The position numbers were made by a program, and so were the translations under genes. DNA of 64,000 bases from Escherichia phage JH2, in sequence record KF055347. One strand, given 5' to 3'. Positions within the stretch are counted from its first letter, which is position 1. Each line of letters starts with the position of its first letter. This document shows positions 9,575 through 64,000 of this stretch, piece by piece. Below the pieces are notes generated by a model that worked only from the letters and a program-made list of their open reading frames with translations, did not search any database and had not been told where the DNA came from.

Positions 9575-10318
9575 TTAAATTTTCAGGATAGCTCTTAGCT
9601 TGCTTTCAAGGTCTTCAAGAGTACCATTATTCTGAATAATGTCACGCGCATATTTGGTAGAAATTCCATTTTCTGAAACATGTGATGAAACCTTGTCCAC
9701 ATTGTCTCTTTTTACTTCAATAGTCTGGTGTGCAAATCTACTCAGCCACTCAGCTTCAGAGTCAAACCTTAAGTCACTGATTAAAACAACACCTTCTTGA
9801 TTCCTAAGTGAGCAAACGTCAAAGAAATTTGCCATTCGTTTTTCTAGGTCTTTAGCCCAGAACTTGTCACCCATAACTTTACGGATAACTTCAGTACCCC
9901 AAATCTGTTGAATTTGCCTTGATGAGAATTTATACTTTTTACCAAATCCCAGACGTGTTAATAGAGTTGGTTTAGCAACCCTCTTAAGTTCCATGATTAA
10001 TCGTCCGGTTAACTCAGACATAAGCTTAAAGTCCATATGGTAACGTTCATCTCTGAAGGTGAACTCCATAGCTTCCGTAACTTTACTCATAAGTTCAGGG
10101 TATGATAAATCAAAAACCTGTGGGGTCTCTTTAGTTTCTCCGTAAAGGTCATTCCATGTCAAGTCAAATATCTTTGATGCAGATAGCTTAAGATTGTCTG
10201 CATAAGCCATTACTGCAACATTGTAGCCATACTCATCTTCTAAGATATTCTTAACAATAGAACATGAGGTGTCTTTTCCAGAACGTGCCTTTCCAGTAAA
10301 TGCAATAATACTACTCAT
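9575..10318 (-). CDS. deoxynucleoside monophosphate kinase (T5-like)
   Basis: P-loop IIAFTGKARSGKDT and C-terminal IQNNGTLEDLESKLRAILKI resemble T5 dNMP kinase; start moved to ATG after AAGGGAAATAGA. Confidence 0.7.
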   Translation of the reverse strand: MSSIIAFTGKARSGKDTSCSIVKNILEDEYGYNVAVMAYADNLKLSASKIFDLTWNDLYGETKETPQVFDLSYPELMSKVTEAMEFTFRDERYHMDFKLMSELTGRLIMELKRVAKPTLLTRLGFGKKYKFSSRQIQQIWGTEVIRKVMGDKFWAKDLEKRMANFFDVCSLRNQEGVVLISDLRFDSEAEWLSRFAHQTIEVKRDNVDKVSSHVSENGISTKYARDIIQNNGTLEDLESKLRAILKI

Positions 10319-11616: not shown

Positions 11617-11873
11617 GTAAGCCTCTTTTAAGTAACTATTAAGTTTTAATCTTTTATCTTAACGTATTCTATACGTTATACTTTAAAGCTTTTTAAAAGC
11701 TATTAAATAATCTTTTAAGAGTTTTAAAGTATCTGTATAGTTAAACTGTTAAGTAACCTTTTAAGTAAAAACCCACTTCGCAAAGATTAACACCTTGTCA
11801 AGTACATTGTCAACTTGCTTTTTATAATTTTTTGCAGTAATGTATGTGGTTAATGATTTTAGAGGGAGTAAAA

Positions 11874-45738: not shown

Positions 45739-45900
45739 AAGGAGAAACCACAATGTACGTCAGAGACATACTGTATAAGTCTTCTTATAAAGTATAACTC
45801 TGTAAAAAAGCCCTGTCTAAAAATACTCTTCGGTAGCGAAAGGAAGAATACTTATAGCAGGGCATTATTATTATTTTAATTGAGAGAGAGTAAAATAACT

Positions 45901-45976
45901 TGGAGAATCCGAAGGGACTCGAACCCTTATAAACCTGTTTTGCAGACAGGCACATATCCATTTCTGTCACGGATTC
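45901..45976 (-). tRNA. tRNA-Cys (anticodon GCA)
   Basis: Cloverleaf read by eye: CCA encoded, T-arm AAGGG/CCCTT with TTCGAGT loop, anticodon loop CUGCAAA, acceptor 7 bp. Confidence 0.7.
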
Positions 45977-45980
45977 AAAT

Positions 45981-46073
45981 TGGAGGAAGATACCAGACTT
46001 GAACTGGTACACCGATTTCTCAGCTACTGGCAGTTTAGCAAACTGCTCCCTTACCTTTTAGGGTTAATCTTCC
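45981..46073 (-). tRNA. tRNA-Ser (anticodon GCT), long variable arm
   Basis: T-arm ACCAG/CTGGT, anticodon arm GCAGT-UUGCUAA-ACUGC, ~21-nt variable arm, perfect 7-bp acceptor. Confidence 0.7.
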
Positions 46074-46074
46074 A

Positions 46075-46809
46075 TTATTTCTGTAATGCGTTCTTCATTT
46101 CTGGTGTTGCAATAGTGTCAATCACACCAGTTTTACAAGCATCATCAAACCAGTCTGGTAAGATACCTGCTAAGAACCCATTGATATTCGTTTTAAGGTA
46201 CTCTGCAATAAGGGCAGCTTCTTCTTCAATCATCTGCACAACTTCATCTGCATAAGCTGTAATCTTTGAGATACCTTCATTAATCTTGCTAACAGCTTGG
46301 TTAGCTAAATCAGAAATAGTATCAAGACCTTCATCAATAGCATCTTGTAAGTCACTTAATACACCATTAACACCATCTAGTGCGCTGTTAATTGTGTCAA
46401 TAGCTTTTTGACCATACTCTGTAGCAACACCCATAATACCACTAAATGGTGTACAACCGACTTGCTCTCCTGCTGCACCCATAACATTGGAATACCCCTT
46501 TGCTACCTGCATACGTGATGAAAACTCATCAATAGACTTTTGACCATAGTCTGTTAGGGTCTTAGTAGTTGCTGTAGTGCTTGTAAGGCTTGTTGTAAAG
46601 CTGTTTAGAAGGGCTGTTGTGAGTCCAGCAGCAACAAGTTTATCCTTTATTGTAGGGTCTGCTACAGAGCTAATAGAGCTTACAAGTGATGTAGAGGCAG
46701 CTACGGTTCCACCGAGAACTGCTGCACCAGTAATAAGGGGATTAGAAAACCCTCTACCGGTTTTTAAGAGATTAAAAATCTCCTTACCTTGTTCTGTCAT
46801 CTCTTTCAT
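46075..46809 (-). CDS. hypothetical Ala/Ser/Thr-rich protein embedded in tRNA array
   Basis: ORF trimmed to MKEMTEQ... after AAAGGTG to avoid overlapping the upstream tRNA. Confidence 0.5.
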   Translation of the reverse strand: MKEMTEQGKEIFNLLKTGRGFSNPLITGAAVLGGTVAASTSLVSSISSVADPTIKDKLVAAGLTTALLNSFTTSLTSTTATTKTLTDYGQKSIDEFSSRMQVAKGYSNVMGAAGEQVGCTPFSGIMGVATEYGQKAIDTINSALDGVNGVLSDLQDAIDEGLDTISDLANQAVSKINEGISKITAYADEVVQMIEEEAALIAEYLKTNINGFLAGILPDWFDDACKTGVIDTIATPEMKNALQK

Positions 46810-46825
46810 TAAGCACCTTTGAAAT

Positions 46826-46902
46826 TGGTAGTCCAGTGGGATTTGAACCCTCTTCTCATGTTTTTCAGACACGCGCTTTAACCATATAAGCTACTTGGAC
46901 TG
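46826..46902 (-). tRNA. tRNA-Phe (anticodon GAA)
   Basis: Anticodon arm CGUGU-CUGAAAA-ACAUG; T-loop UUCAAAU; T-stem and acceptor each carry one mismatch, ends approximate. Confidence 0.6.
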
Positions 46903-46907
46903 TAAAT

Positions 46908-46983
46908 TGGGGTGACCTACGGGATTTGAACCCGTATAGACCATGTTCACAGCATGGGTCATTACCTTTTATGATAAGGCCAC
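46908..46983 (-). tRNA. tRNA-His (anticodon GTG)
   Basis: Perfect T-arm ACGGG/CCCGU, anticodon loop with GUG, 76 nt. Confidence 0.7.
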
Positions 46984-47014
46984 ATTTAAGGACTCTCGTA
47001 AGAACCCTTAGAAG

Positions 47015-47090
47015 TGGCAGCGGCATAAGGATTTGAACCTTAATAAGACAGCTTCAGAGACTGCTGCATTGCCAGTTATGCTATACCGCT
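47015..47090 (-). tRNA. tRNA-Gln (anticodon CTG)
   Basis: T-arm TAAGG/CCTTA, D-arm GCAT/ATGC, anticodon stem with two G.U pairs, loop CUCUGAA. Confidence 0.6.
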
Positions 47091-47095
47091 AAATT

Positions 47096-47174
47096 TGGTA
47101 CTCCATATCGGATTCGAACCGATACATAACACAGATTTTAAGTCTGGCCTCTCTGCCAATTGGAGTAATGGAGC
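47096..47174 (-). tRNA. tRNA-Leu (anticodon TAA), atypical short variable region
   Basis: Perfect T-arm; anticodon loop CUUAAAA; ~7-nt variable region instead of a long arm, so identity is tentative. Confidence 0.5.
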
Positions 47175-47176
47175 AT

Positions 47177-47252
47177 TGGCGGGGGATGTTGGAATTGAAC
47201 CAACTTCTTCGATTTCAAAGACCGAGGTTTTAACCTTGTAAACTAATCCCCT
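47177..47252 (-). tRNA. tRNA-Gln (anticodon TTG)
   Basis: Perfect T-arm GTTGG/CCAAC; anticodon loop CUUUGAA. Confidence 0.6.
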
Positions 47253-47260
47253 TTAAATCT

Positions 47261-47818
47261 TTACTTTCTCAGTGGATGAATAAAGAATGCCAACATAACT
47301 CTTTCCCTTGAGAATGCTCTTTCTTCTGGGACAACACTTTTTAGTTTCCACCCAACATAAATTCTCCAGTAAAATTGTTTACCAAAGACTTTGATTGATG
47401 GGACAAAAGCGAATAATCCCCAAGCATTGCTGTTCCACATTAGGAGATAACCAGTCTGATTATCTTCAGGGTCAGAACTTACGTTGATATTACCTTTCCA
47501 CTTAGTAACATCTTTTACATCTCTTCCTAATACATGGTAAGAGAAGTTATAAGCTTTGTTTCTCCAGAGCCATCCAACTCTCTGCAAATAGACACCAAGC
47601 TTACCAATCTTTCTAATCTTAGCCCATCGTTTAATGTGACCTTCATCACCATCAATAGGGTTGTCATATGTCTCCATCCATCTGAATCCAAAAGGTAGAT
47701 GTCCTTTCTTCTCACTATAGAATGGAACTACAAAAGGTGCTAAGATAACTGCTAAGGTTGCTGCCAATGGGTCTAACAAAGCTAGGAAAATCCATGAAGC
47801 ATACTTCAAATATCTCAT
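47261..47818 (-). CDS. hypothetical membrane protein embedded in tRNA array
   Basis: 185 aa, N-terminal TM helices (WIFLALLDPLAATLAVILAPFVVPF); AAGAGG RBS. Confidence 0.5.
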   Translation of the reverse strand: MRYLKYASWIFLALLDPLAATLAVILAPFVVPFYSEKKGHLPFGFRWMETYDNPIDGDEGHIKRWAKIRKIGKLGVYLQRVGWLWRNKAYNFSYHVLGRDVKDVTKWKGNINVSSDPEDNQTGYLLMWNSNAWGLFAFVPSIKVFGKQFYWRIYVGWKLKSVVPEERAFSRERVMLAFFIHPLRK

Positions 47819-47830
47819 TTAAATAGCCTC

Positions 47831-47906
47831 TTTAAATTGGTGCAGGATAAGGGATTCGAACCCCTATTAACAGCTTCGTAGACTGTTGCTCTATCCATTT
47901 GAACTA
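47831..47906 (-). tRNA. tRNA-Arg (anticodon ACG)
   Basis: T-arm with TTCGAAT loop; anticodon loop CUACGAA; acceptor 7 bp. Confidence 0.65.
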
Positions 47907-47911
47907 ATCCT

Positions 47912-47989
47912 GCAAAATTGGTGTTCCAAGACGGATTCGAACCGTCACTAATACAAGGTTTGAGCTTGCATCCTCTGCCAATTGGGATA
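47912..47989 (-). tRNA. tRNA-Leu (anticodon CAA), atypical short variable region
   Basis: Perfect T-arm GACGG/CCGTC; anticodon loop CUCAAAC; 78 nt without long extra arm. Confidence 0.5.
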
Positions 47990-47990
47990 C

Positions 47991-48065
47991 TGGAACGTGG
48001 TACTCACTAAAGGACTTGAACCTTTTTCTTCATCTTGTAAGGGTGATGTTTTACCATATAAACTA
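47991..48065 (-). tRNA. tRNA-Val (anticodon TAC)
   Basis: Perfect T-arm AAAGG/CCTTT; anticodon loop CUUACAA. Confidence 0.65.
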
Positions 48066-48160
48066 AGCGAGTATGAAAGAGGTCTGAAGTTGTGCCGCTA
48101 ACTCAACTCCGTGGAATTTGTTACGGTCTTCAGTTGACACCAGCGGTCTTTCACTTGACC

Positions 48161-48236
48161 TCTGAATTGGTGCTCCCACAAGGATTCGAACCCTGATAAG
48201 TTGCTTACAAGGCAACCGTAATAGCCAATTATACGA
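48161..48236 (-). tRNA. tRNA-Thr (anticodon TGT)
   Basis: Perfect anticodon stem GTTGC/GCAAC; loop CUUGUAA. Confidence 0.7.
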
Positions 48237-48243
48237 TAGGAGC

Positions 48244-48318
48244 ATTAATTTGGAGCATCCAGAGGGAATCGAACCCTCAACCTCAGTTTGGAAGACTGTA
48301 ATTTTCCCGTTTAAACTA
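48244..48318 (-). tRNA. tRNA-Gly (anticodon TCC)
   Basis: Perfect T-arm GAGGG/CCCTC and perfect acceptor GCATCCA/TGGATGC; anticodon loop CUUCCAA. Confidence 0.7.
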
Positions 48319-48324
48319 TGGATG

Positions 48325-48400
48325 CACTAATTGGTGGAGTCACTGAGAATTGAACTCAGTTCCCGAGTTTGCAAAACTCGAATTTTAACCATATAAACTA
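48325..48400 (-). tRNA. tRNA-Ala (anticodon TGC)
   Basis: Perfect T-arm CTGAG/CTCAG and anticodon stem CGAGT/ACTCG; loop UUUGCAA. Confidence 0.7.
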
Positions 48401-48406
48401 TGACCC

Positions 48407-48482
48407 CAATGTTTGGTGCAGGTGGAGGGAATTGAACCCATCGTCTTACTGATTAAGAGTCAGCCGCATAACCATTTTGCTA
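48407..48482 (-). tRNA. tRNA-Lys (anticodon CTT)
   Basis: Perfect acceptor GCAGGTG/CACCTGC; anticodon loop CUCUUAA; weak T-stem; paralog of the tRNA at 49729. Confidence 0.6.
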
Positions 48483-48489
48483 CACCTGC

Positions 48490-48567
48490 ATTAATTTGGT
48501 AGGAGACAAGGGATTCGAACCCTCAAACACCAACTTCTAAGGATGGTAGGTTTACCAATTACCGTCA
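48490..48567 (-). tRNA. tRNA-Leu (anticodon TAG), atypical
   Basis: T-arm AAGGG/CCCTC; anticodon loop CUUAGAA; acceptor pairing needs 2 extra nt near the D-arm; no long variable arm. Confidence 0.5.
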
Positions 48568-48829
48568 ATCTCCCATTAAATCTTTTTAGAGAACTTCTAA
48601 GAACCTAAGCAACAAGGTTCCACAACAAGCTGTAATAACCTTAGAAGCCCTCTAAAAAGACCTAAATTGGTCTTTGCATAGTCTTGTTTAATCCGGTGAC
48701 TAGAACCTTTGGAGAGCTTGATATTATCTCTTCTCCGTGACACCTACTAGGTGCTTTATCAGTGTGTACGACAATACACGAGGGATACCAAAGCAACATC
48801 CGAATGAAGCTTGGCTTTAAATCTTATTA

Positions 48830-48919
48830 GGCGGTAAGTAAAGGAGTCGAACCCTCACCGTATCTCTACAGTGGCAACAGTTTTCAAGACTGTTTGGCTG
48901 CCATTAGCCGCTACCTACC
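48830..48919 (-). tRNA. tRNA-Ser (anticodon TGA), long variable arm
   Basis: Perfect anticodon stem ACAGT/ACTGT with loop CUUGAAA; ~20-nt variable arm; CCA only partly encoded. Confidence 0.6.
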
Positions 48920-48932
48920 CCTAATAAGACTT

Positions 48933-49015
48933 TGGCATGGGACGGAGGAGTTGAACCCCTTTGAAACGGTTTTGGAGGCCGTTGCTCATGCCTTAGAGTC
49001 TTAACATCGTCCCAC
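48933..49015 (-). tRNA. tRNA-Trp (anticodon CCA), with ~7 extra nt between D-arm and acceptor
   Basis: Anticodon arm ACGGC-CUCCAAA-ACCGU; acceptor strands pair only if the gene is ~83 nt. Confidence 0.5.
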
Positions 49016-49157
49016 ACTATAATTCGAAGCTTACCGTATTTTCGCAACACTGTAAAGCCCCTTCTCAGATTATTTACATGTTCTGGAAAACATGAGATAC
49101 AGACCACCTCCTTACACGGAGACCCGATAAGGTCGTCTAAGCAATCTGCTAACTATT

Positions 49158-49234
49158 TGGCACACCCTACAGGATTCGAACCTGTAACTCAATGATTAGA
49201 AGTCATTTGCTCTGTCCAGTTGAACTAAGGGTGC
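49158..49234 (-). tRNA. tRNA-Arg (anticodon TCT)
   Basis: Perfect T-arm ACAGG/CCTGT and anticodon stem AATGA/TCATT; loop CUUCUAA. Confidence 0.7.
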
Positions 49235-49570
49235 ATTAATCTTTAAAGACTCTCTTAGAAAGCCCTTAAAGATGCCCACCTTATTAATCATACCGTGGGC
49301 GAGTACGCCAAATTCTTTGATGAGGGATTGGAAGACCTCACTGGTGTTTAGCCTATCAAGCTACTGCCAGAAAAACATTGTCGTTTGCATTTATTTTAAA
49401 TTTGCAAAATAGACGCTACGCAACGAAAACTATTCAGAATATGTACAACAAATTTCCCCACATTGTGTTACGTCTAACGCTCATGTATTGGTGTTTGAAT
49501 TATACATATTATGAAGTATTTTAGTTACTATAAAGTGGTCACATCTCAATGTCAACAACTTTATTGAAAT

Positions 49571-49645
49571 TGGTTGTAGGTGAGGGTATCGAACCCTCTT
49601 CTAACGGTTATCAGCCGTTTGCATTACCATTTATGCTAACCCACA
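49571..49645 (-). tRNA. tRNA-Ile (anticodon GAT)
   Basis: Perfect T-arm GAGGG/CCCTC and anticodon stem AACGG/CCGTT; loop CUGAUAA. Confidence 0.7.
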
Positions 49646-49647
49646 AT

Positions 49648-49724
49648 TGGAGGTTCAGATGGGAATCGAACCCACATTCATAGGGCTTATGAAACCCTTG
49701 CATTACCTTATCTGCGACTGAACC
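49648..49724 (-). tRNA. tRNA-Met (anticodon CAT)
   Basis: Perfect acceptor GGTTCAG/CTGAACC; anticodon loop UUCAUAA. Confidence 0.6.
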
Positions 49725-49728
49725 ATAT

Positions 49729-49804
49729 TGGTAGAAGTGGAGGGATTCGAACCCATCGCCTGTCAGATTAAAAGTCTGCCGCATCACCATTCTGCTACAC
49801 TTCC
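49729..49804 (-). tRNA. tRNA-Lys (anticodon TTT)
   Basis: Paralog of the tRNA at 48407 with the same atypical T-stem; anticodon loop CUUUUAA. Confidence 0.6.
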
Positions 49805-49810
49805 ATTAAA

Positions 49811-49950
49811 TTATCTTTGTAGATAAGCTACCCAGACTTGCTTAAGGTCTGTAGCGATGTGCTTTGTTGGGTTTAAATCTAGAATTTACCCTTTCACCCT
49901 TTGTGGTCGCATACTCACAGGTAAGCTTAATAACTTATCTACAAAGATAA
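49811..49950 (-). ncRNA. candidate structured ncRNA closed by a perfect 17-bp long-range stem
   Basis: TTATCTTTGTAGATAAG (49811-49827) is the exact reverse complement of CTTATCTACAAAGATAA (49934-49950), enclosing 106 nt with internal hairpins; no ORF or tRNA. Confidence 0.35.
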
Positions 49951-49953
49951 TTA

Positions 49954-50084
49954 CCAGACCGTTGTTTATCATCTTAAGTGCTACCATTACACCAACTCGA
50001 CATCTGCCGAGTGAAGGAATCGAACCTTCGCCTTTTCTTTACCGAGAAATAGATTGTTTAAGTTTTGCTGTAAACGGTCTTCTG
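49954..50084 (-). ncRNA. candidate Y RNA-like ncRNA with circularly permuted tRNA-like module (YrlA-type)
   Basis: Minus-strand RNA: closing stem CAGAAGACCGUU...AACGGUCUGG; internal canonical T-arm GAAGG-UUCGAUU-CCUUC; acceptor-like stem CUCGGC-AGAU-GUCGAG capped by a tetraloop; D-arm-like GUG-UAAUGGUAG-CAC; no anticodon arm. Confidence 0.45.
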
Positions 50085-50097
50085 TAAATTTGTTGAG

Positions 50098-50174
50098 CCA
50101 GACCAAGTTTTAAATTTTTTCAAAATTAAATTGGCTTGAAAATATCATACGTACTTGCTGAATTTGGTCTTCTG
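50098..50174 (-). ncRNA. structured intergenic element with the same closing stem (CCAGACC / GGTCTTCTG family)
   Basis: Terminal inverted repeat CCAGACCAA ... TTGGTCTTCTG as in the 49954-50084 element; AT-rich interior. Confidence 0.3.
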
Positions 50175-50261
50175 CTCCTTTAAAGAATACTCGTAAGAAC
50201 TCTTTAAGGGAGGGGCTAAATAGCCCTCTCAAAACATCATCTTGAAATACTTATTATAATT

Positions 50262-50339
50262 TGGCGGTTACGAAGGGATTTGAACCCTCATCATCTCCCG
50301 TGACAGGGGAGTATTTTAACCAGATTAAACTACATAACC
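50262..50339 (-). tRNA. tRNA-Asp (anticodon GTC)
   Basis: Perfect anticodon stem CTCCC/GGGAG; loop CUGUCAC. Confidence 0.65.
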
Positions 50340-50345
50340 TTTATT

Positions 50346-50433
50346 TGGTGTGCCGTGTAGGAGTCGAACCTACCGAGTCTCAATGACAAGGGATTTACAG
50401 TCCCCACCGCTACCATCTACGGGATAACGACAC
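50346..50433 (-). tRNA. tRNA-Tyr (anticodon GTA), long variable arm
   Basis: Perfect T-arm GTAGG/CCTAC; anticodon loop CUGUAAA; ~15-nt variable arm. Confidence 0.6.
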
Positions 50434-50493
50434 ATTTTATTTTCTATTCAGGCTAAGGACTTGCACCTTACAAATCGGTGAGCAATCGCTTCT

Positions 50494-50570
50494 CTCCTAA
50501 ATTTGGCGGTTAGTCAGGGATTCGAACCCTGTGCCATTCGCTTAACAGGCGACCGCACATACCTTATGTG
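50494..50570 (-). tRNA. tRNA-Asn (anticodon GTT)
   Basis: Perfect T-arm CAGGG/CCCTG; anticodon loop CUGUUAA. Confidence 0.65.
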
Positions 50571-50591
50571 CTTCCTAACCTTAATACATTG

Positions 50592-50651
50592 CCAGACCGT
50601 GTTTTTTCTTTTATCCGCAAAAAGTAGTTTGTTGCTGCATACGGTCTTCTG
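50592..50651 (-). ncRNA. structured intergenic element (CCAGACC / GGTCTTCTG family)
   Basis: GCCAGACCGT ... ACGGTCTTCTG terminal inverted repeat enclosing ~45 nt with an internal hairpin. Confidence 0.3.
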
Positions 50652-50657
50652 CAAAAT

Positions 50658-50733
50658 TGGAGGCGGGTGCAGGAGTCGAACCTGCCGATACCATGCTAAT
50701 GAGACATGTGAGACGCCCTTTCTCTATACCCGC
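50658..50733 (-). tRNA. tRNA with CAT anticodon (Met, initiator or Ile-lysidine type); unusual U37
   Basis: Perfect T-arm GCAGG/CCTGC, D-arm GAGA/TCTC, anticodon loop CUCAUUA. Confidence 0.5.
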
Positions 50734-50745
50734 AATTCTTAATGA

Positions 50746-50818
50746 CCAGACCAAATCTCTTCTTTGTCCGATTTATCTTCAGATGAATAAGATTAAGTTT
50801 GCTGTAATTGGTCTTCTG
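50746..50818 (-). ncRNA. structured intergenic element (CCAGACC / GGTCTTCTG family)
   Basis: CCAGACCAA ... TTGGTCTTCTG terminal inverted repeat as in the other three family members. Confidence 0.3.
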
Positions 50819-50825
50819 TCAAAAC

Positions 50826-50903
50826 TGGCGTTCCAGAAGGGATTTGAACCCTCAAATATCCACTTTGAAAGAGTGGTGACTTTACCATTTTGTCTACTGG
50901 AAC
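50826..50903 (-). tRNA. tRNA-Glu (anticodon TTC)
   Basis: Perfect anticodon stem CCACT/AGTGG with loop CUUUCAA; perfect acceptor GTTCCAG/CTGGAAC. Confidence 0.65.
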
Positions 50904-51104: not shown

Positions 51105-51133
51105 CATATTAAAGGGTATCAAACACATTGTCA
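51105..51133 (-). promoter_or_regulatory. sigma70-type promoter heading the tRNA array (TTGACA - 17 nt - TAATAT)
   Basis: Minus strand: TTGACA (plus 51128-51133), 17-nt spacer, TAATAT (plus 51105-51110); the -35 sits in the loop of an inverted repeat AGGGTAT/ATACCCT. Confidence 0.45.
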
Positions 51134-51152
51134 ATACCCTTTTTAAAACTTT

Positions 51153-53021: not shown

Positions 53022-53270
53022 TGGTATGCCTCTTATAAGACCTCTTAAAAGGCTTTTAAGATAAAAGATAGATATCCAGAAAGATATCTGTTTAAATAGC
53101 CTTTTTAGAGGAACCTTTTAAGTTATCTTCTAAGTATTTATAAGCCTACACCTTGTCAAGTCCTTTGTCAACAACTTTTTTAACTTGCAATAGTTCTTGA
53201 CTTGTTGTATGGATTACTGTACCATCTTACTTAAAGCTGTAGGTCTGCCTTGTTCTACAAAGGAGACTTA

Positions 53271-59959: not shown

Positions 59960-60508
59960 ATGAAAAAAGATAACTTAAAAGAAGTTGAAGGCAACTACCT
60001 AGTCCTTGACTGGAATGATATTCGGGAAGCACTCTCCGAAGAAAGCCTTGACATACTAGAGCAACTTATCTTCTCAGTACGTCATACCAGAGGTATTGTA
60101 AACGGTAAAGAGCCATTAGAAGGAATCTTTGTAGAGAAGTCTTATCCGTTCTATGAAGACACTTTACAGAAAGTTAAGATGTACTTTAGACAGAAGAACC
60201 GTAAAGTGGTCACTATGGTATCTCTTGGTGGACAGAGTATGTCTGTGATGGAGGATATCAACCCTAAGAGACCAAGTAAAGGTGTCTGTATAAAAATCAC
60301 AGGGCATGAAGAGTATATCTCAGTAGATGACTTTAGTGCATTCTGTAATGGTTCTGCTGTCTTTAATGGGTTCCACTATGATATCCGAGTGTACCCAATC
60401 AAGGGAGATGATATCATGATGCAGATATTTGATAACAACAATGGATTTACTCATTTTTATCAGACAACCAAGTCATCACTGAAGACAGTTCTGGAAACAC
60501 TGATTTAA
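59960..60508 (+). CDS. hypothetical protein
   Basis: ORF trimmed to MKKDNLKEV...; followed by a terminator hairpin. Confidence 0.5.
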   Translation: MKKDNLKEVEGNYLVLDWNDIREALSEESLDILEQLIFSVRHTRGIVNGKEPLEGIFVEKSYPFYEDTLQKVKMYFRQKNRKVVTMVSLGGQSMSVMEDINPKRPSKGVCIKITGHEEYISVDDFSAFCNGSAVFNGFHYDIRVYPIKGDDIMMQIFDNNNGFTHFYQTTKSSLKTVLETLI

Positions 60509-60518
60509 AATATCTTAA

Positions 60519-60551
60519 GAGCCTCCTTAATTGGGGGCTTTTTAATTTTTA
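60519..60551 (+). terminator. rho-independent terminator
   Basis: Hairpin GAGCCTCC-TTAATTG-GGGGCTT followed by TTTTAATTTTT. Confidence 0.6.
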
Positions 60552-62140
60552 TAAAATTTCATCGGTTGTCCCAACCTCTGGGTCACCATCATATGTGAAT
60601 AAAATATCTACCCTTCTTAATAACCTTCTTAAGCTTACTCTCTATATATAGTTATATAGTACTATATAGTATCTTAGTATCTATCTAGTGGTCTTAATAG
60701 CCCCTCTGTATAGCCCTTCTAAACACTCTTCTAACAAGCCTTCTTAACAACCTATACAATCACCTTAACCATCTCTCTACACACTCTTAGAAGCCCCTAT
60801 ACACCTCTTAATCTCTAGGTTACCTGTGTTACTTAACAGTAACCCATCATGTTAGCTATGTTACCCTCTATAGGTGTTCACTAGGTATTACTAAGCCTCT
60901 ATATAGACTGTTTTAACAAACTTAACAGGAATATCTTTACAGACCTTATCTCACAAGGTCTAACACGGTACTAACAAGGTATCTTATAAGCCTGTTTATG
61001 CCTGTATTTTTAGAAGACTGTTTAGGTAATTATTCAGAATTTTAAAATTTTTATAAAATAGGGCTATCAAGTCATTTTTTAGGGTCTTTGAAGGAACTCA
61101 AAAATATCTGTAGAGTTGATTCGGTAGAATCTACCTCATGATGTATATCTGCTTGGTAGCCCTTAACAGCTCCTTAACACCCCCTTTGCAAAATTTTAAA
61201 ATATCATTAACAATCTCTCAACAGTTCTTACAACCTTTTAACATCTCTTCAGAGGTCTTAACAGATTCTTAACAGAACTAACAAGGGTGTAACAAGTTCT
61301 TAACAGTTGATACATAGTCTTTACAGAGTCTTAACAGATGACTAACAATAGCTAACAAGTTAATTTTAAAGAGTTATTTTGTTAAGATAATTAACAAGTT
61401 CCTAACAAGTGTTTAATCTTTTTAACAAGCTGTTAACACGGTCACTATCTCTTTTCTTATCGTTCCCTTTCCCTCTTAGTGATTCTCTAAATAGCCCTCT
61501 TAAAAGCTCTCTATAGCTCCTTGTAAGCTCTTTTAAGCCTCTTCCTAGTAATTACACCCCAACTATGAAGAAAGCTCTTTATAGGGCTTTACAGAGGCTT
61601 TAAAGGCTATGTCAAAGACTCTTACAAGGCTTTTACGTGGTTTTAACAGAGATTTAACAAGGGGCTAACAAGTCTCTAACAAGTGCCTTAAAAACATAAC
61701 TATGTAGGGTTTGTTAAGAAATTGTTAAGAAAATGTTAAGGGGGCTAGCATTTACGTAACTTTTAAGCTACTTCAAAGCAACTTTTAAGCCCCTATAACA
61801 TACTTTTTAGTTACTATCAAGGGGCTTGTTTAGTTATTCACAAGGAACTAACGAGATAATAAAGCTTACACCCTTATAAGATTCTTTTAAGGCTCTAGAA
61901 AGCTTTATAAAGGGCTTTTAAGGGTGAGGTAATGCAATCCCTTAAGTTAGGTTAATAAGGCTGTTATAGGTCTTTATAGAGCGTTTAAATGGTTGCCCTT
62001 CCCTTTCGGGTTATGGGCTTATATTTAAGTTGATTTAATAAAAGGCTATAGAGTAAGCTATAGAGTTATTGCTTTTTAAGGTCTAGTAAGATTCTGGAAA
62101 GGGAAAGGGAAAGGATTGTATAAGGATTGTATAAGACGTA
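60552..62140. repeat. ORF-free, repeat-dense non-coding region (degenerate YTAACAR / CTTTWAAGG motifs, short tandem repeats)
   Basis: No ORF of 60 aa or more on either strand; many copies of CTTAACAG / CTAACAAG / TTAACAAG-like octamers (densest 61200-61450), tandem GGGAAA x3 and GGATTGTATAA x2 at 62098-62141. Confidence 0.6.
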
Positions 62141-62166
62141 AAAAAGCCCCTATTGGAAAGGGGCTG
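62141..62166 (-). terminator. rho-independent terminator ending the early gene array (minus strand)
   Basis: Minus-strand hairpin AGCCCCU-UUCCAAU-AGGGGCU followed by UUUUU; a second hairpin GGGGCUAUUUAGCCCC lies just upstream. Confidence 0.65.
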
Positions 62167-62203
62167 TAAAGGTATCTGGGGCTAAATAGCCCCGTTGCGT
62201 CGA

Positions 62204-62452
62204 TTAGTTATAATCTTGTTTGTTGTAGTACAGGGAGACGATTTTTTCTCCCCAATAGTGATAAGTGTAACCATCTTTAAGAACTTCCTGTTTTGTTTCT
62301 TTCCAGAACTCATCTGAAGGATTATAGTCTTTGATGGTCTGACTGATAAGAACTTTCACCATTTCAAAGGCGTTATCAGTGCCCACAAGGTCGAATTTAA
62401 CATCCAGAGAGTAGAAGCCAAATTCATTAACAGTTGCGCGGATAGTTGCCAT
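62204..62452 (-). CDS. early protein D (hypothetical, 82 aa)
   Basis: ATG 8 nt after AGGAG inside a conserved cassette; the track's longer ORF would read through the 5' hairpin. Confidence 0.55.
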   Translation of the reverse strand: MATIRATVNEFGFYSLDVKFDLVGTDNAFEMVKVLISQTIKDYNPSDEFWKETKQEVLKDGYTYHYWGEKIVSLYYNKQDYN

Positions 62453-62543
62453 TTTCGAATCTCCTAGTTTAAGGATTTTGTTTAGTAGGGAGGTCATCCC
62501 TCCCGTTGATTAGTAATTTACTGCATGTTGGCGTATGTTGCAA
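62453..62543 (-). promoter_or_regulatory. early cassette 1: sigma70-type promoter (TTGCAA - 17 nt - TAAATT) + 5'-UTR hairpin + RBS
   Basis: -35 at plus 62538-62543, -10 at 62515-62520, hairpin GGGAGG-loop-CCUCCC at 62487-62504, AGGAG at 62461-62465; near-identical cassettes precede the next three genes. Confidence 0.55.
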
Positions 62544-62781
62544 GCCTTTTTTCGTTGTATTTTGTAAGAATCTCACAAGATAAAACATCGTAATTTGTAA
62601 CAGCGTTGCCTTTATCGAGGTCAAAGAATCCAAATGTTTTACCATCTTTGAATCCGACAACTTCGTAAGACTCTTTGATGATTTCACCATTGAACAAATC
62701 ACTTTCGATGCGGTGAATTAATGCTACGTTTTCTTTATCGGTTGCAATTTGTAAAAGTGTGGTTAATTCTACGTTTTCCAT
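62518..62781 (-). CDS. early protein C (hypothetical, 87 aa)
   Basis: ATG after conserved CCTTAAACTAGGAG leader. Confidence 0.55.
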   Translation of the reverse strand: MENVELTTLLQIATDKENVALIHRIESDLFNGEIIKESYEVVGFKDGKTFGFFDLDKGNAVTNYDVLSCEILTKYNEKRLATYANMQ

Positions 62782-62872
62782 CTTGATAACTCCTAGTTTA
62801 AGGACTTTACTTAGTGGGGAGGTTATCCCTCCCGTTGATTAGTAATTTACAGATTTTTGATTGTCTCGTCAA
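62782..62872 (-). promoter_or_regulatory. early cassette 2: promoter (TTGACG - 17 nt - TAAATT) + 5'-UTR hairpin + RBS
   Basis: -35 at plus 62867-62872, -10 at 62844-62849, hairpin 62816-62833. Confidence 0.55.
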
Positions 62873-63377
62873 TATCTTTTTCAATATCTTTTAAAGTTTT
62901 TTCTAAGTTCTTGATATTGAATGATAAACCTTCACCGAGAGTCTTAGAGTAACCGCTAGGGCGTAAGTCATGCAGTTCGATTTCTTCCACATTGGATAAG
63001 TTGACCATCCCACCATTTGCAGCATAGGCTATTGACACAGTATTTTCAGGTGCGTTGTAAAACTTGTTTAAGGACTTGATAGAACGTTCATAAGCCATTT
63101 TATAACTGTTTAAAAGGTTTTTAACGTGATTGTGAACGTTTTTACACTCATCTAAGTAAAGCCCTAAAAACATCGGGAGGAGTTCCGCAACGGCTTGCAT
63201 AAAGTGAGAGACTACAACGGTTGCAACATTACGACGATGAATGTAATAAGCCCCATTTTCTGATTTAGTGATGGTTGCAAAGTGTACACCATTACAACGG
63301 AATTCATAGGTGTCTTTAACAGGCTTTGACATAACACTATTTGAGCGGATGTAATTGATGGCTTTGAACTTGTTCAT
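62847..63377 (-). CDS. early protein B (hypothetical, ~176 aa)
   Basis: ATG (MNKFKAINY...) after conserved leader; the stop codon overlaps the -10 of the downstream cassette. Confidence 0.55.
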   Translation of the reverse strand: MNKFKAINYIRSNSVMSKPVKDTYEFRCNGVHFATITKSENGAYYIHRRNVATVVVSHFMQAVAELLPMFLGLYLDECKNVHNHVKNLLNSYKMAYERSIKSLNKFYNAPENTVSIAYAANGGMVNLSNVEEIELHDLRPSGYSKTLGEGLSFNIKNLEKTLKDIEKDIDETIKNL

Positions 63378-63468
63378 TTTTGAATCTCCTAGTTTAAGGA
63401 CTTTACTTAGTGGGGAGGTCATCCCTCCCGTTGATTAGTAATTTACTTGTTTTGATAGCTGATTGCAA
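63378..63468 (-). promoter_or_regulatory. early cassette 3: promoter (TTGCAA - 17 nt - TAAATT) + 5'-UTR hairpin + RBS
   Basis: -35 at plus 63463-63468, -10 at 63440-63445, hairpin 63412-63429. Confidence 0.55.
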
Positions 63469-63597
63469 GCAATTTTTTAAGTTTATCTATAAAGAATCTT
63501 TTAAGTTAATCCCTTTTAGATAAACCCCCTCGAACAAAGTTACCAATGTCAAGAGGGATTGTCAACACTTTTTTAAAAGTTTTTTGTAAGTTATTGA

Positions 63598-63939
63598 TTA
63601 ACTGATGAATATTTTTTCAGGTTTTACATAGCTGATACGCTGACTTTTTAGGAGGTCATCCCAGATTAGCGCGGCAATATGAGAATAGCCGGATTCACGT
63701 AAGAGTTTCATTGCTTTACTTCTCGTTTCGAATCTGGTTGCATAGTACTCACTATTCAAAACAGTTTTATTCCCTTCGTTGTCTGTATGGATAATCTGCA
63801 TTACTTGAAAGGGGCTTGTTTCCTCACCTTTGTTCCATTGCTCAAAGTATTTTAGGCACTGCATAGGTGACATCTTATCGCTTACTTGAGTTGACCAAGA
63901 TGAGCCAGCTTTATCGGTAATTACGGTTACATAAGCCAT
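63598..63939 (-). CDS. early protein A (hypothetical, 113 aa)
   Basis: ATG after conserved leader. Confidence 0.55.
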   Translation of the reverse strand: MAYVTVITDKAGSSWSTQVSDKMSPMQCLKYFEQWNKGEETSPFQVMQIIHTDNEGNKTVLNSEYYATRFETRSKAMKLLRESGYSHIAALIWDDLLKSQRISYVKPEKIFIS

Positions 63940-64000
63940 TTTTGAATCTCCTAGTTTAAGGATTTTACTTAGTGGGGAGGTTATCCCTCCCGTTGATTGA
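63940..64000 (-). promoter_or_regulatory. early cassette 4 (RBS + 5'-UTR hairpin; promoter truncated by window end)
   Basis: Same CTCCTAGTTTAAGGA ... GGGGAGGTTATCCCTCCC element at 63943-63991. Confidence 0.45.

Follow-up and report, generated by a model that had tools for sequence, protein, structure and literature searches.

We analysed a stretch of 64,000 nucleotides (nt) of Escherichia phage JH2 (sequence record KF055347), referred to below as the window, whose minus strand carries at 64000-62145 an array of small genes separated by near-identical repeats. Based on comparative analyses in silico, we propose that this is the distal end of an early ORFan array in which each gene probably stands behind a modular cassette composed of a promoter, a hairpin and a Shine-Dalgarno (SD) leader, resembling the promoter-early stem-loop (PeSL) cassettes of T4-type phages (Arbiol et al. 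2010, PMC2839356; Comeau et al. 2014, PMC4122927). The array is conserved and regulatory in character, and has hitherto been annotated as direct repeats with no functional interpretation. PeSL-like cassettes are newly recognised in Felix-O1-like phages; the mechanism itself is not new.

Organization of the array in JH2

At this end of the window the minus strand carries four consecutive small open reading frames (ORFs), each with its own copy of a 62-nt block upstream; a repeat search gave 90-100% identity between the copies. This agrees with the sequence-only reading of the region, which had described four minus-strand genes with near-identical cassettes. A longer repeat family (84 nt, 3 copies) was found in the same search. 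The hairpin motif GGGAGGGATRACCTCCC is present in four minus-strand copies (62488-62504, 62817-62833, 63413-63429 and 63975-63991) and in none of the shuffled sequences, and the leader CCTTAAACTAGGAG in four copies (at 62461, 62790, 63386 and 63948) vs. 0.59 expected. The features of the array, in the direction of transcription, are as follows.

63975-63994, minus strand: unit 1 start and hairpin; predicted start A 63994, GGGAGG 63991-63986, loop GATAA, CCTCCC 63980-63975
63948-63961, minus strand: unit 1 leader CCTTAAACTAGGAG with Shine-Dalgarno GGAG; ATG at 63939
63598-63939, minus strand: ORF1, 113 amino acids; PHROG 4318, unknown function; orthologue of Felix O1 ORF21
63440-63478, minus strand: unit 2 promoter; A-tract 63478-63473, TTGCAA 63468-63463, 17-nt spacer, TAAATT 63445-63440
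63413-63432, minus strand: unit 2 start and hairpin; predicted start A 63432, GGGAGG-GATGA-CCTCCC 63429-63413, -12.3 kcal/mol
63386-63399, minus strand: unit 2 leader and SD; mini-hairpin UCCU-UAAACU-AGGA; ATG at 63377
62847-63377, minus strand: ORF2, 176 amino acids; PHROG 4725 / PF26821; orthologue of Felix O1 ORF22
62844-62881, minus strand: unit 3 promoter; A-tract 62881-62877, TTGACG 62872-62867, 17 nt, TAAATT 62849-62844
62817-62836, minus strand: unit 3 start and hairpin; predicted start A 62836, GGGAGG-GATAA-CCTCCC
62790-62803, minus strand: unit 3 leader and SD; ATG at 62781
62518-62781, minus strand: ORF3, 87 amino acids; PHROG 7022
62515-62552, minus strand: unit 4 promoter; A-tract 62552-62547, TTGCAA 62543-62538, 17 nt, TAAATT 62520-62515
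62488-62507, minus strand: unit 4 start and hairpin; predicted start A 62507, GGGAGG-GATGA-CCTCCC
62461-62474, minus strand: unit 4 leader and SD; ATG at 62452
62204-62452, minus strand: ORF4, 82 amino acids; PHROG 4559; final array gene; orthologue of Felix O1 ORF23
62165-62145, minus strand: intrinsic terminator AGCCCCTTTCCAATAGGGGCT followed by a T7 tract; closes the array; the sole call of the terminator scan in the array region

Unit 1 is truncated at 'TCAATCAAC', just 3′ of its -10, and its promoter lies beyond the end of the window; orthologues of this unit carry TAGACA-N17-TAAATT in place of the part that is cut off. Of the four promoters claimed earlier, three are thus complete, and for these (units 2-4) the 17-nt spacing and the TAAATT box hold. 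The -35 box, given at the time as TTG(C/A)C(A/G), has to be corrected, the actual hexamers being TTGCAA, TTGACG and TTGCAA.

Promoters and genes are interleaved. The 3′ end of ORF2 holds the A-tract and -35 of unit 3, and the ORF2 stop codon TAA provides the first 3 bases of the unit 3 TAAATT; likewise, the A-tract and -35 of unit 4 are located inside ORF3, whose stop TAA forms the first 3 bases of the next TAAATT. In hairpins 2 and 4 the loop GAUGA contains an AUG (63422 and 62497) in frame with ORF2 and ORF4, respectively, and ORF callers therefore lengthen ORF2 to 191 and ORF4 to 97 amino acids. The GenBank record of phage warpig (L003 9059-9634 and 9655-9948) uses such hairpin-loop-extended forms of the genes. 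The SD-preceded starts located 15 codons downstream of the loop AUGs are likely the true starts of ORF2 and ORF4.

Occurrence and cassette classes in related phages

Three kb of the region are 88-91% identical to many Felixounavirus genomes, and the window represents the right-hand portion of a genome of this genus. With one cassette as a blastn query we obtained matches at 1135 places in 240 phage records, all of them Felixounavirus or Mooglevirus. A scan of IMG/VR with the 14-mer TCCTAAACTGGAGA gave mostly single chance matches, and multi-copy matches were found only in contigs of ~54-90 kb, most of them 81-90 kb. For the comparisons described below, the homologous region was taken from 8 relatives (AYO145A, mio, warpig, Michonne, Sf13, Felix O1, SP116 and typing phage 15), and the comparisons cover nine genomes.

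The arrays of the relatives comprise 8-18 cassettes, which confirms the claim of the sequence-only reading that the array runs past the end of the window, and start after a terminator located 3′ of a phosphatase/macro-domain gene. The 107 cassettes of the nine genomes belong to two alternating classes, A (n=59) and B (n=48), with a common SD leader, CCTAAACTGGAG or CCTTAAACTAGGAG. Class A is the kind present in the window; class B was found in the related loci, with no full copy in the window. Class B has TTTACA-N17-TAnnnT in 47/48 cassettes, and its hairpin, GGGG(C/T)TTA...TAAGCCCC, covers the spacer and the -10, lying upstream of the cassette's own predicted start. Class-B cassettes (e.g. 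L001 2209-2296) also contain a pair of palindromes separated by 47 bp, of which TAAAGTACTTTA overlaps the -35 and TAAAGAGCTTTA occupies about +3 to +14. Their resemblance to operators suggests that this class may be regulated by a dimeric DNA-binding protein. In JH2 itself, GGGGCTATTTAGCCCC followed by AGATACCTTTAC at 62193-62178 (minus strand), between ORF4 and the terminator, looks like a degenerate class-B cassette.

These repeats have been recorded before. The Felix O1 genome paper lists 57-bp and 39-bp 'direct repeats' with no interpretation and does not call them promoters (PMC3185647). The GenBank record of phage wV8 annotates the repeats merely as DR_1 to DR_9 and calls some of the hairpins opposite-strand terminators. 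Our search for literature linking PeSLs with Felix-type phages returned no report.

Conserved promoter elements

The 17-nt spacer, the -35 TTG, the -10 TAnnnT and the upstream A-tract are kept together in 58 of the 59 class-A cassettes. Within this frame the boxes vary. The -35 occurs as TTGCAA, TTGACA, TTGACG, TTGACT and TTGATT (TAGACA in one orthologous group), and the -10 as TAAATT, TAAAGT, TAGTAT, TAATAT, TATAGT, TACTAT, TAGAGT and TAAGTT, with T-12, A-11 and T-7 constant. The information profile of the aligned cassettes peaks at the A-tract (about -45 to -40), at the TTG and at T-12/A-11/T-7, and is near zero over the 38 distinct spacers; in this profile the -10 columns were fixed by the anchoring of the alignment, the -35 and A-tract columns were not. 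The A-tract sits at the position of an UP element. Neither the -35 nor the A-tract of class A is part of the repeated block; they occur in at least 12 unrelated contexts, two of them coding sequences. TTG stands exactly 17 nt from TAnnnT in about 15/16 unrelated upstream contexts, the chance of this from base composition being ~0.02 per site.

Taken together, the class-A boxes behave like real sigma-70 elements, as the sequence-only reading had argued from the free spacer, and are likely promoters of the host sigma-70 type. The term 'early', used in the same reading, agrees with expression data for Felix O1, whose ORFs 16, 20, 21 and 22 were maximal at 5 min after infection (end-point reverse transcription PCR, RT-PCR, Table 3 in PMC3185647); the last two are orthologous to ORF1 and ORF2, respectively.

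Hairpin and leader structure

For the analysis of RNA structure the start was assumed at the A located 8 nt 3′ of the -10 hexamer (TC|A), so that the predicted RNA opens with AAC, followed by the stem. In nearly all variants the class-A hairpin begins 10-11 nt past the -10, which corresponds to about +4. It occurs in 44 distinct versions across the DNA compared. In silico, this supports the earlier claim of a hairpin near the 5′ end of the transcript. Folding of each variant gave free energies of -7 to -15 kcal/mol and z scores of -3 to -7 vs. shuffles. The stems include GGGAGG/CCUCCC, GGGGAGGG/CCUUCCCC (with one G·U pair), GGGAAGG/CCUUCCC, GGGGAGG/CCUCCCC, GGGC...GCCC, GGGA-AACA-UCCC and GGGGC...GCCCC. 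One stem position alternates between A-U, G·U and G-C, Mooglevirus hairpins have tetraloops of the GNRA type (GAAA or GAGA), and some indel variants re-pair a stem in a different register. In most variants of both classes the sense RNA is more stable than the antisense owing to G·U pairs.

More distant sequences show the same placement. One cassette of Erwinia phage Omen (Kolesnikvirus) has a hairpin of unrelated sequence, GGUUGA-GCAG-UCAACC, likewise located at +4 after TATACT, and the Omen class-B stems GGUG/CACC vs. GGGG/CCCC elsewhere represent a compensatory change. These patterns point to a hairpin that was probably selected as a structure of the sense RNA.

The sequence that follows the class-A stem is CACTAAGTAAAG (CACUAAGUAAAG). 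It has no U-tract and drew no call in the terminator scan; the class-A hairpin is therefore not an intrinsic terminator. A search of Rfam 15 gave no family match, only two sub-threshold chance matches elsewhere in 60000-64000. Processing by RNase III was considered for these hairpins and rejected, as the stems (4-8 bp) are too short.

The leader contains a weak hairpin, UCC(U)-UAAACU-(A)GGA, which is conserved and partly masks the SD; the SD itself is always GGAG. Two alleles of this mini-hairpin differ by a coordinated insertion of U and A, that is, by one extra pair, and the Omen leaders (L130) show a similar layout, CCU(U)...(A)AGG. At ~10020-10060 of the same Omen locus we noted a true terminator, GGGGGCTTTACAGCCCC with a T-run, whose loop holds the -35 TTTACA of the promoter that comes next, TTTACA-N18-TATACT.

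Gene gain, loss and recombination at the cassettes

Gene order in the nine genomes showed that genes come and go exactly between cassettes. Warpig, Felix O1 and SP116 lack ORF3 and carry a chimeric cassette at the junction. In warpig this junction cassette is composed of the upstream half of unit 3, located within the ORF2 3′ end, and of the loop and 3′ arm of unit 4. Truncated tandem cassettes occur in SP116 and Michonne (L007:7035/7125, L004:3894/3980). Members of the ORF1 family have a class-A cassette upstream in 6 genomes and a class-B cassette in 3, and hairpin and SD alleles are distributed patchily over orthologous positions. A comparison of ungapped leader identity within vs. between genomes (0.585 vs. 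0.574) was uninformative. We consider it likely, from these arrangements, that the cassettes mediate gene shuffling.

ORF1 and unit 2 are separated by a gap of 175 nt that contains an additional promoter-like sequence, TTGACA-N17-TAACTT (63547-63575, minus strand), annotated as a promoter in AYO145A. In Michonne, Sf13 and SP116 the corresponding gap is filled by an ORF of 34-46 amino acids with its own cassette; JH2 therefore seems to have lost that gene.

Proposed mechanism

We propose that each cassette would consist of a sigma-70 promoter (A-tract at ~-45 to -40, TTGnnn, exactly 17 nt, TAnnnT), a G+C-rich hairpin at ~+4 preceded by roughly three unpaired 5′ nt (AAC), an A/U-rich linker, and the shared Shine-Dalgarno leader with the ATG. 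Host RNA polymerase would initiate at each cassette soon after infection, so that each ORFan would get its own transcript, and the one terminator at 62165-62145 would stop every transcript of the array. The hairpin would work as part of the sense RNA, where it may hinder 5′-end-dependent decay (RppH, RNase E) when placed at the 5′ end of a transcript, as do the ompA and papA stem-loops, and could bar 3′ exonucleases in read-through RNA. That the class-A hairpin is specifically a 5′ stabiliser of mRNA is argued from its position, and we put this at a little under an even chance. Finally, the near-identity of the ~60-90-nt cassettes would make them substrates for homologous recombination, which could add, remove and re-pair genes and promoters while leaving the expression signals intact.

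Several observations weigh against this proposal. In a generic promoter scan we obtained 12 sites in the region vs. 9.8 in shuffles, which is no excess. Each promoter in the window matches the consensus at 8-9 of 12 positions, and 125 sites of the form TTGnnn-N16-18-TAnnnT across the whole window score at least as high. Neither the scan nor the site count separates the cassettes from background, and the promoter argument thus rests on comparative conservation, part of which could reflect recombinational homogenisation, not selection. A test for reduced synonymous change at the -35 inside ORF3 had 5 distinct sequences, too few for statistics. In Felix O1, ORFs 17, 19 and 23, the last being the ORF4 orthologue, peak at 25 min in end-point RT-PCR (PMC3185647), and the searchable literature holds no start-site, reporter or half-life data for Felix-O1-like phages; a search for Felixounavirus transcriptomes likewise returned nothing. 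As to the hairpin, its three basal G-C pairs are invariant and thus give no covariation signal, and it has been lost in two cassettes of relatives (L005:8897, L007:8541), so it is dispensable and not a strict requirement. RNAalifold on a MAFFT alignment of 24 variants returned just the 3-bp SD mini-hairpin and not the main hairpin, which was missed because stems of unequal length were misaligned; RNAalifold was therefore replaced by folding of each variant and tabulation of the pairs. PeSL stem-loops, moreover, have been read experimentally as terminators or attenuators, not as stabilisers (PMC2839356).

Alternative explanations

In the original PeSL reading, the hairpin mainly attenuates or insulates, protects the 3′ end of the upstream cistron and so limits the build-up of read-through. 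Such a role has experimental precedent, as an RB49/phi1 PeSL stem-loop placed between promoter and lacZ cut expression about as much as rrnB T1 (PMC2839356). There are no terminators between the array genes, so read-through must otherwise accumulate; class-B hairpins, being upstream of their own predicted start, would act only on read-through RNA; and one Omen cassette has the true terminator with the -35 in its loop. The class-A hairpin, however, is located within its own predicted transcript, where an efficient terminator would abort the RNA initiated at the cassette, and it has neither a U-tract nor a terminator call. Even where the stems are unrelated, the hairpin keeps a distance of 10-11 nt from the -10, whereas its distance from the upstream stop ranges from 0 to >100 nt, and the fixed spacing ties it to the start site. 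Attenuation therefore fits class B, where the hairpin precedes the start, and fits class A poorly; as the main role of the hairpin we consider it rather unlikely, if still a serious contender. The conserved 5′ untranslated region (UTR) might instead be recognised by an RNA-binding factor encoded by the phage or the host, a translational repressor or endonuclease like T4 RegA/RegB, that shuts off all genes jointly after the early phase. One SD leader is common to both promoter classes in 107 cassettes, its GGAG is partly covered by the weak hairpin whose alleles differ by the coordinated U and A, and a similar arrangement occurs in the Erwinia relative. Yet recombinational homogenisation can explain the identity of the leaders, the main hairpin is conserved in its ability to fold and not in sequence, and no RegA- or RegB-like gene was identified among the ORFs scanned, which were just some of those present. 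We regard a binding factor as improbable.

It is more doubtful still that the cassettes are not promoters and that a strong first promoter, located upstream of the window, drives the array as one operon in which the repeats are conserved ribosome-binding-site or processing modules or simply recombining repeats. The weak consensus matches, no better than background in an A+T-rich genome, speak for this, as do the Felix O1 authors, who made no promoter call, and the wV8 record with its DR_1 to DR_9. The recurrence of TTG at exactly 17 nt in unrelated contexts, including two coding sequences, is hard to reconcile with it, as are the A-tract at the UP-element position and a -10 that varies at non-critical positions alone; the analogous PeSLs, besides, were very strong promoters in reporter assays (PMC2839356). 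Lastly, the block TAAATTACTAATCAACGGGAGGGA might be a promoter for a phage RNA polymerase or sigma factor, since conservation is high across ~24 nt that span the predicted start, and the RNA would open G-rich. T7-type promoters end in GGGAGA, to which TAAATTACTAATCAACGGGAGGGA is superficially similar. The block varies freely outside the sigma-70 positions (TAGTATTTGCATCAAC, TAAAGTACTCATCAAC, TATACTCTTTTCATCGG), however, and a T7-type promoter would have no use for the conserved -35 at 17 nt. No RNA polymerase gene was found among the 10 largest ORFs of the window, and the Felix O1 genome was reported to have neither a phage polymerase nor a specificity factor (PMC3185647); this explanation is almost certainly wrong. 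An N4-type hairpin promoter or a T7-type promoter was likewise rejected, no giant or single-subunit polymerase having been found.

We keep to per-gene PeSL-like cassettes as the favoured reading. A bolder extension of it, which we hold to be distinctly unlikely, would make the Ounavirinae array a self-contained system of gene-cassette exchange, integron-like but working by general homologous recombination. Class A would be constitutive with a 5′ hairpin, and class B, flanked by the palindromes TAAAGTACTTTA and TAAAGAGCTTTA, would be controlled by a phage repressor, its hairpin acting on upstream read-through. The hairpins would then serve as both stability elements and recombination hot spots, and the origin of the system would be independent of the T4-type PeSLs.

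The encoded proteins

The sequence-only reading had found no recognisable family for the four proteins, and database searches did not change this. ORF1-ORF4 were all assigned to PHROGs without a known function, none of them had a match in Pfam-A, and a PDB sequence search with ORF1 and ORF2 gave no significant match. Homologues of ORF2 (precomputed family PF26821) are confined to Felix-like contigs, of which the longer ones are ~85-90 kb. Structure prediction of ORF2 with AlphaFold produced 1 confident model of 5 (predicted local distance difference test, pLDDT, 89), for which Foldseek found no match in the PDB. A role of ORF1-ORF4 in anti-defence or host takeover is a guess.

Other features of the window

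Next to the array, at 60550-62140, there are 1.6 kb with no ORFs between convergent intrinsic terminators (60517-60542, plus strand; 62165-62145, minus strand). The segment contains short repeats, CTTAACA, CTAACAAG and CTTTTAAG, spaced 11, 20 and 31 nt like helically phased iterons. An ORF-free gap is found at the same place in relatives and is much shorter in typing phage 15. Possible roles of the segment are those of an origin, of a packaging or terminus region, or of an array of protein-binding sites.

A 35-nt repeat, ACACCTTGTCAAGTnCnTTGTCAAC...TTTTTA, is present three times (11790-11824, 51111-51145 and 53148-53182), each copy near one end of a large ORF, and may be another class of regulatory signal. 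On the minus strand at 45900-50900 the repeat search revealed a tRNA-like cluster with repeated T-arm motifs GGTTCGAATCC, in keeping with the reported presence of ~22 tRNA genes in Felix O1.

Implications

Felix O1 and its relatives are widely used as typing, biocontrol and therapy phages. How Felix O1 transcription passes the many terminators of the genome, and how it is timed, were stated to be not understood (PMC3185647). Reading the 'direct repeats' as per-gene promoter cassettes of the host type would provide a testable map of early transcription, and the cassettes would explain why otherwise near-identical phages differ in early ORFan content. The PeSL idea would thereby reach beyond the T4-type phages, which suggests a general solution for adding small genes to the early programme. 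The cassettes, which are compact and apparently strong, may also serve as promoter/5′ UTR parts in E. coli and Salmonella.

Comparison with known systems

Early promoters of T4, which have A-rich UP elements, and those of T5 and T7 are read by the unmodified host sigma-70 holoenzyme immediately post-infection and have A-tracts upstream of the -35. Many coliphage early promoters are located within a few kb of small non-essential genes. Unlike in these phages, the JH2 promoters come one per gene in a near-identical repeat, and the -10 often doubles as the upstream stop. In the T7 early region, intercistronic RNA structures cut by RNase III segment the polycistronic early transcript and leave stabilising end stems, which offers a parallel; RNase III substrates, though, need a duplex of ~20 bp, whereas the stems here are of 4-8 bp and each has its own promoter. 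The intergenic repeats of halovirus HF2 were likewise catalogued as repeats before their promoter function was shown (PMC8707807), but HF2 is an archaeal virus with archaeal promoter elements and has no hairpin or SD module.

For the hairpin, the 5′-terminal stem-loop stabilisers of E. coli, ompA 5′ UTR hp1 and papA, are a parallel (Emory, Bouvet & Belasco 1992; Arnold et al. 1998; Bricker & Belasco 1999; all cited in the review PMC3997798). Going by the predicted start, the cassette too would have a stable hairpin a few nt from the 5′ end of the mRNA, followed by an unstructured region and the SD, which would agree with the known effect of 5′-end base pairing on RNase E. The cassette differs in that its 5′ end is predicted, with ~3 unpaired nt before the stem. 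About three unpaired 5′ nt is near the upper limit for protection by a stem-loop.

The closest likeness is to the PeSLs. Both are intergenic units of ~60-100 nt in ORFan-rich regions, in which an upstream stop in A+T-rich DNA is followed by -35/N17/-10, a stem-loop, an SD and an ATG, and in both the stem-loop is built of a G-run and a C-run with G-T pairs. PeSL stem-loops lie between the boxes, over a box or just 3′ of the -10, positions that classes B and A match, and overlap of a terminator with a promoter, as in Omen, is of the kind described for one PeSL subclass. The published consensuses TTTACW-N17-TAYWAT (T4/PST) and TTGYVH-N17-TAWWAT (KVP40/nt-1) (PMC4122927) fit class B and class A, respectively. 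Gain and loss of genes between cassettes, with chimeric cassettes left behind, parallels the modular shuffling described for PeSLs (PMC2839356); besides attenuation, a role as sites of recombination was ascribed to the PeSL stem-loops. Thus, all the sequence-level hallmarks of PeSLs that could be compared (boxes and spacing, stem-loop, SD and stop flanks, ORFan-rich plasticity) were found in the JH2 family of arrays.

There are differences as well. The phages are myoviruses of the Ounavirinae (Felixounavirus, Mooglevirus, Kolesnikvirus) and not of the T4 type (Tevenvirinae-like), and no sequence homology to T4-type PeSLs was detectable, blastn matches being confined to Ounavirinae. Two strict classes alternate in one array with one leader, and the predicted place of the class-A hairpin is within the RNA, at +4, and not ahead of the start. 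The strong promoter, the stem-loop that lowers expression and the recombination mini-circles of PeSLs are known for RB49/phi1 alone (PMC2839356), and the promoter, terminator and mini-circle data belong to those phages, the likeness drawn here being one of sequence. As the genome is not of the T4 type, we class the JH2 cassettes as PeSL-like in a new lineage and not as members of the PeSL family by descent.

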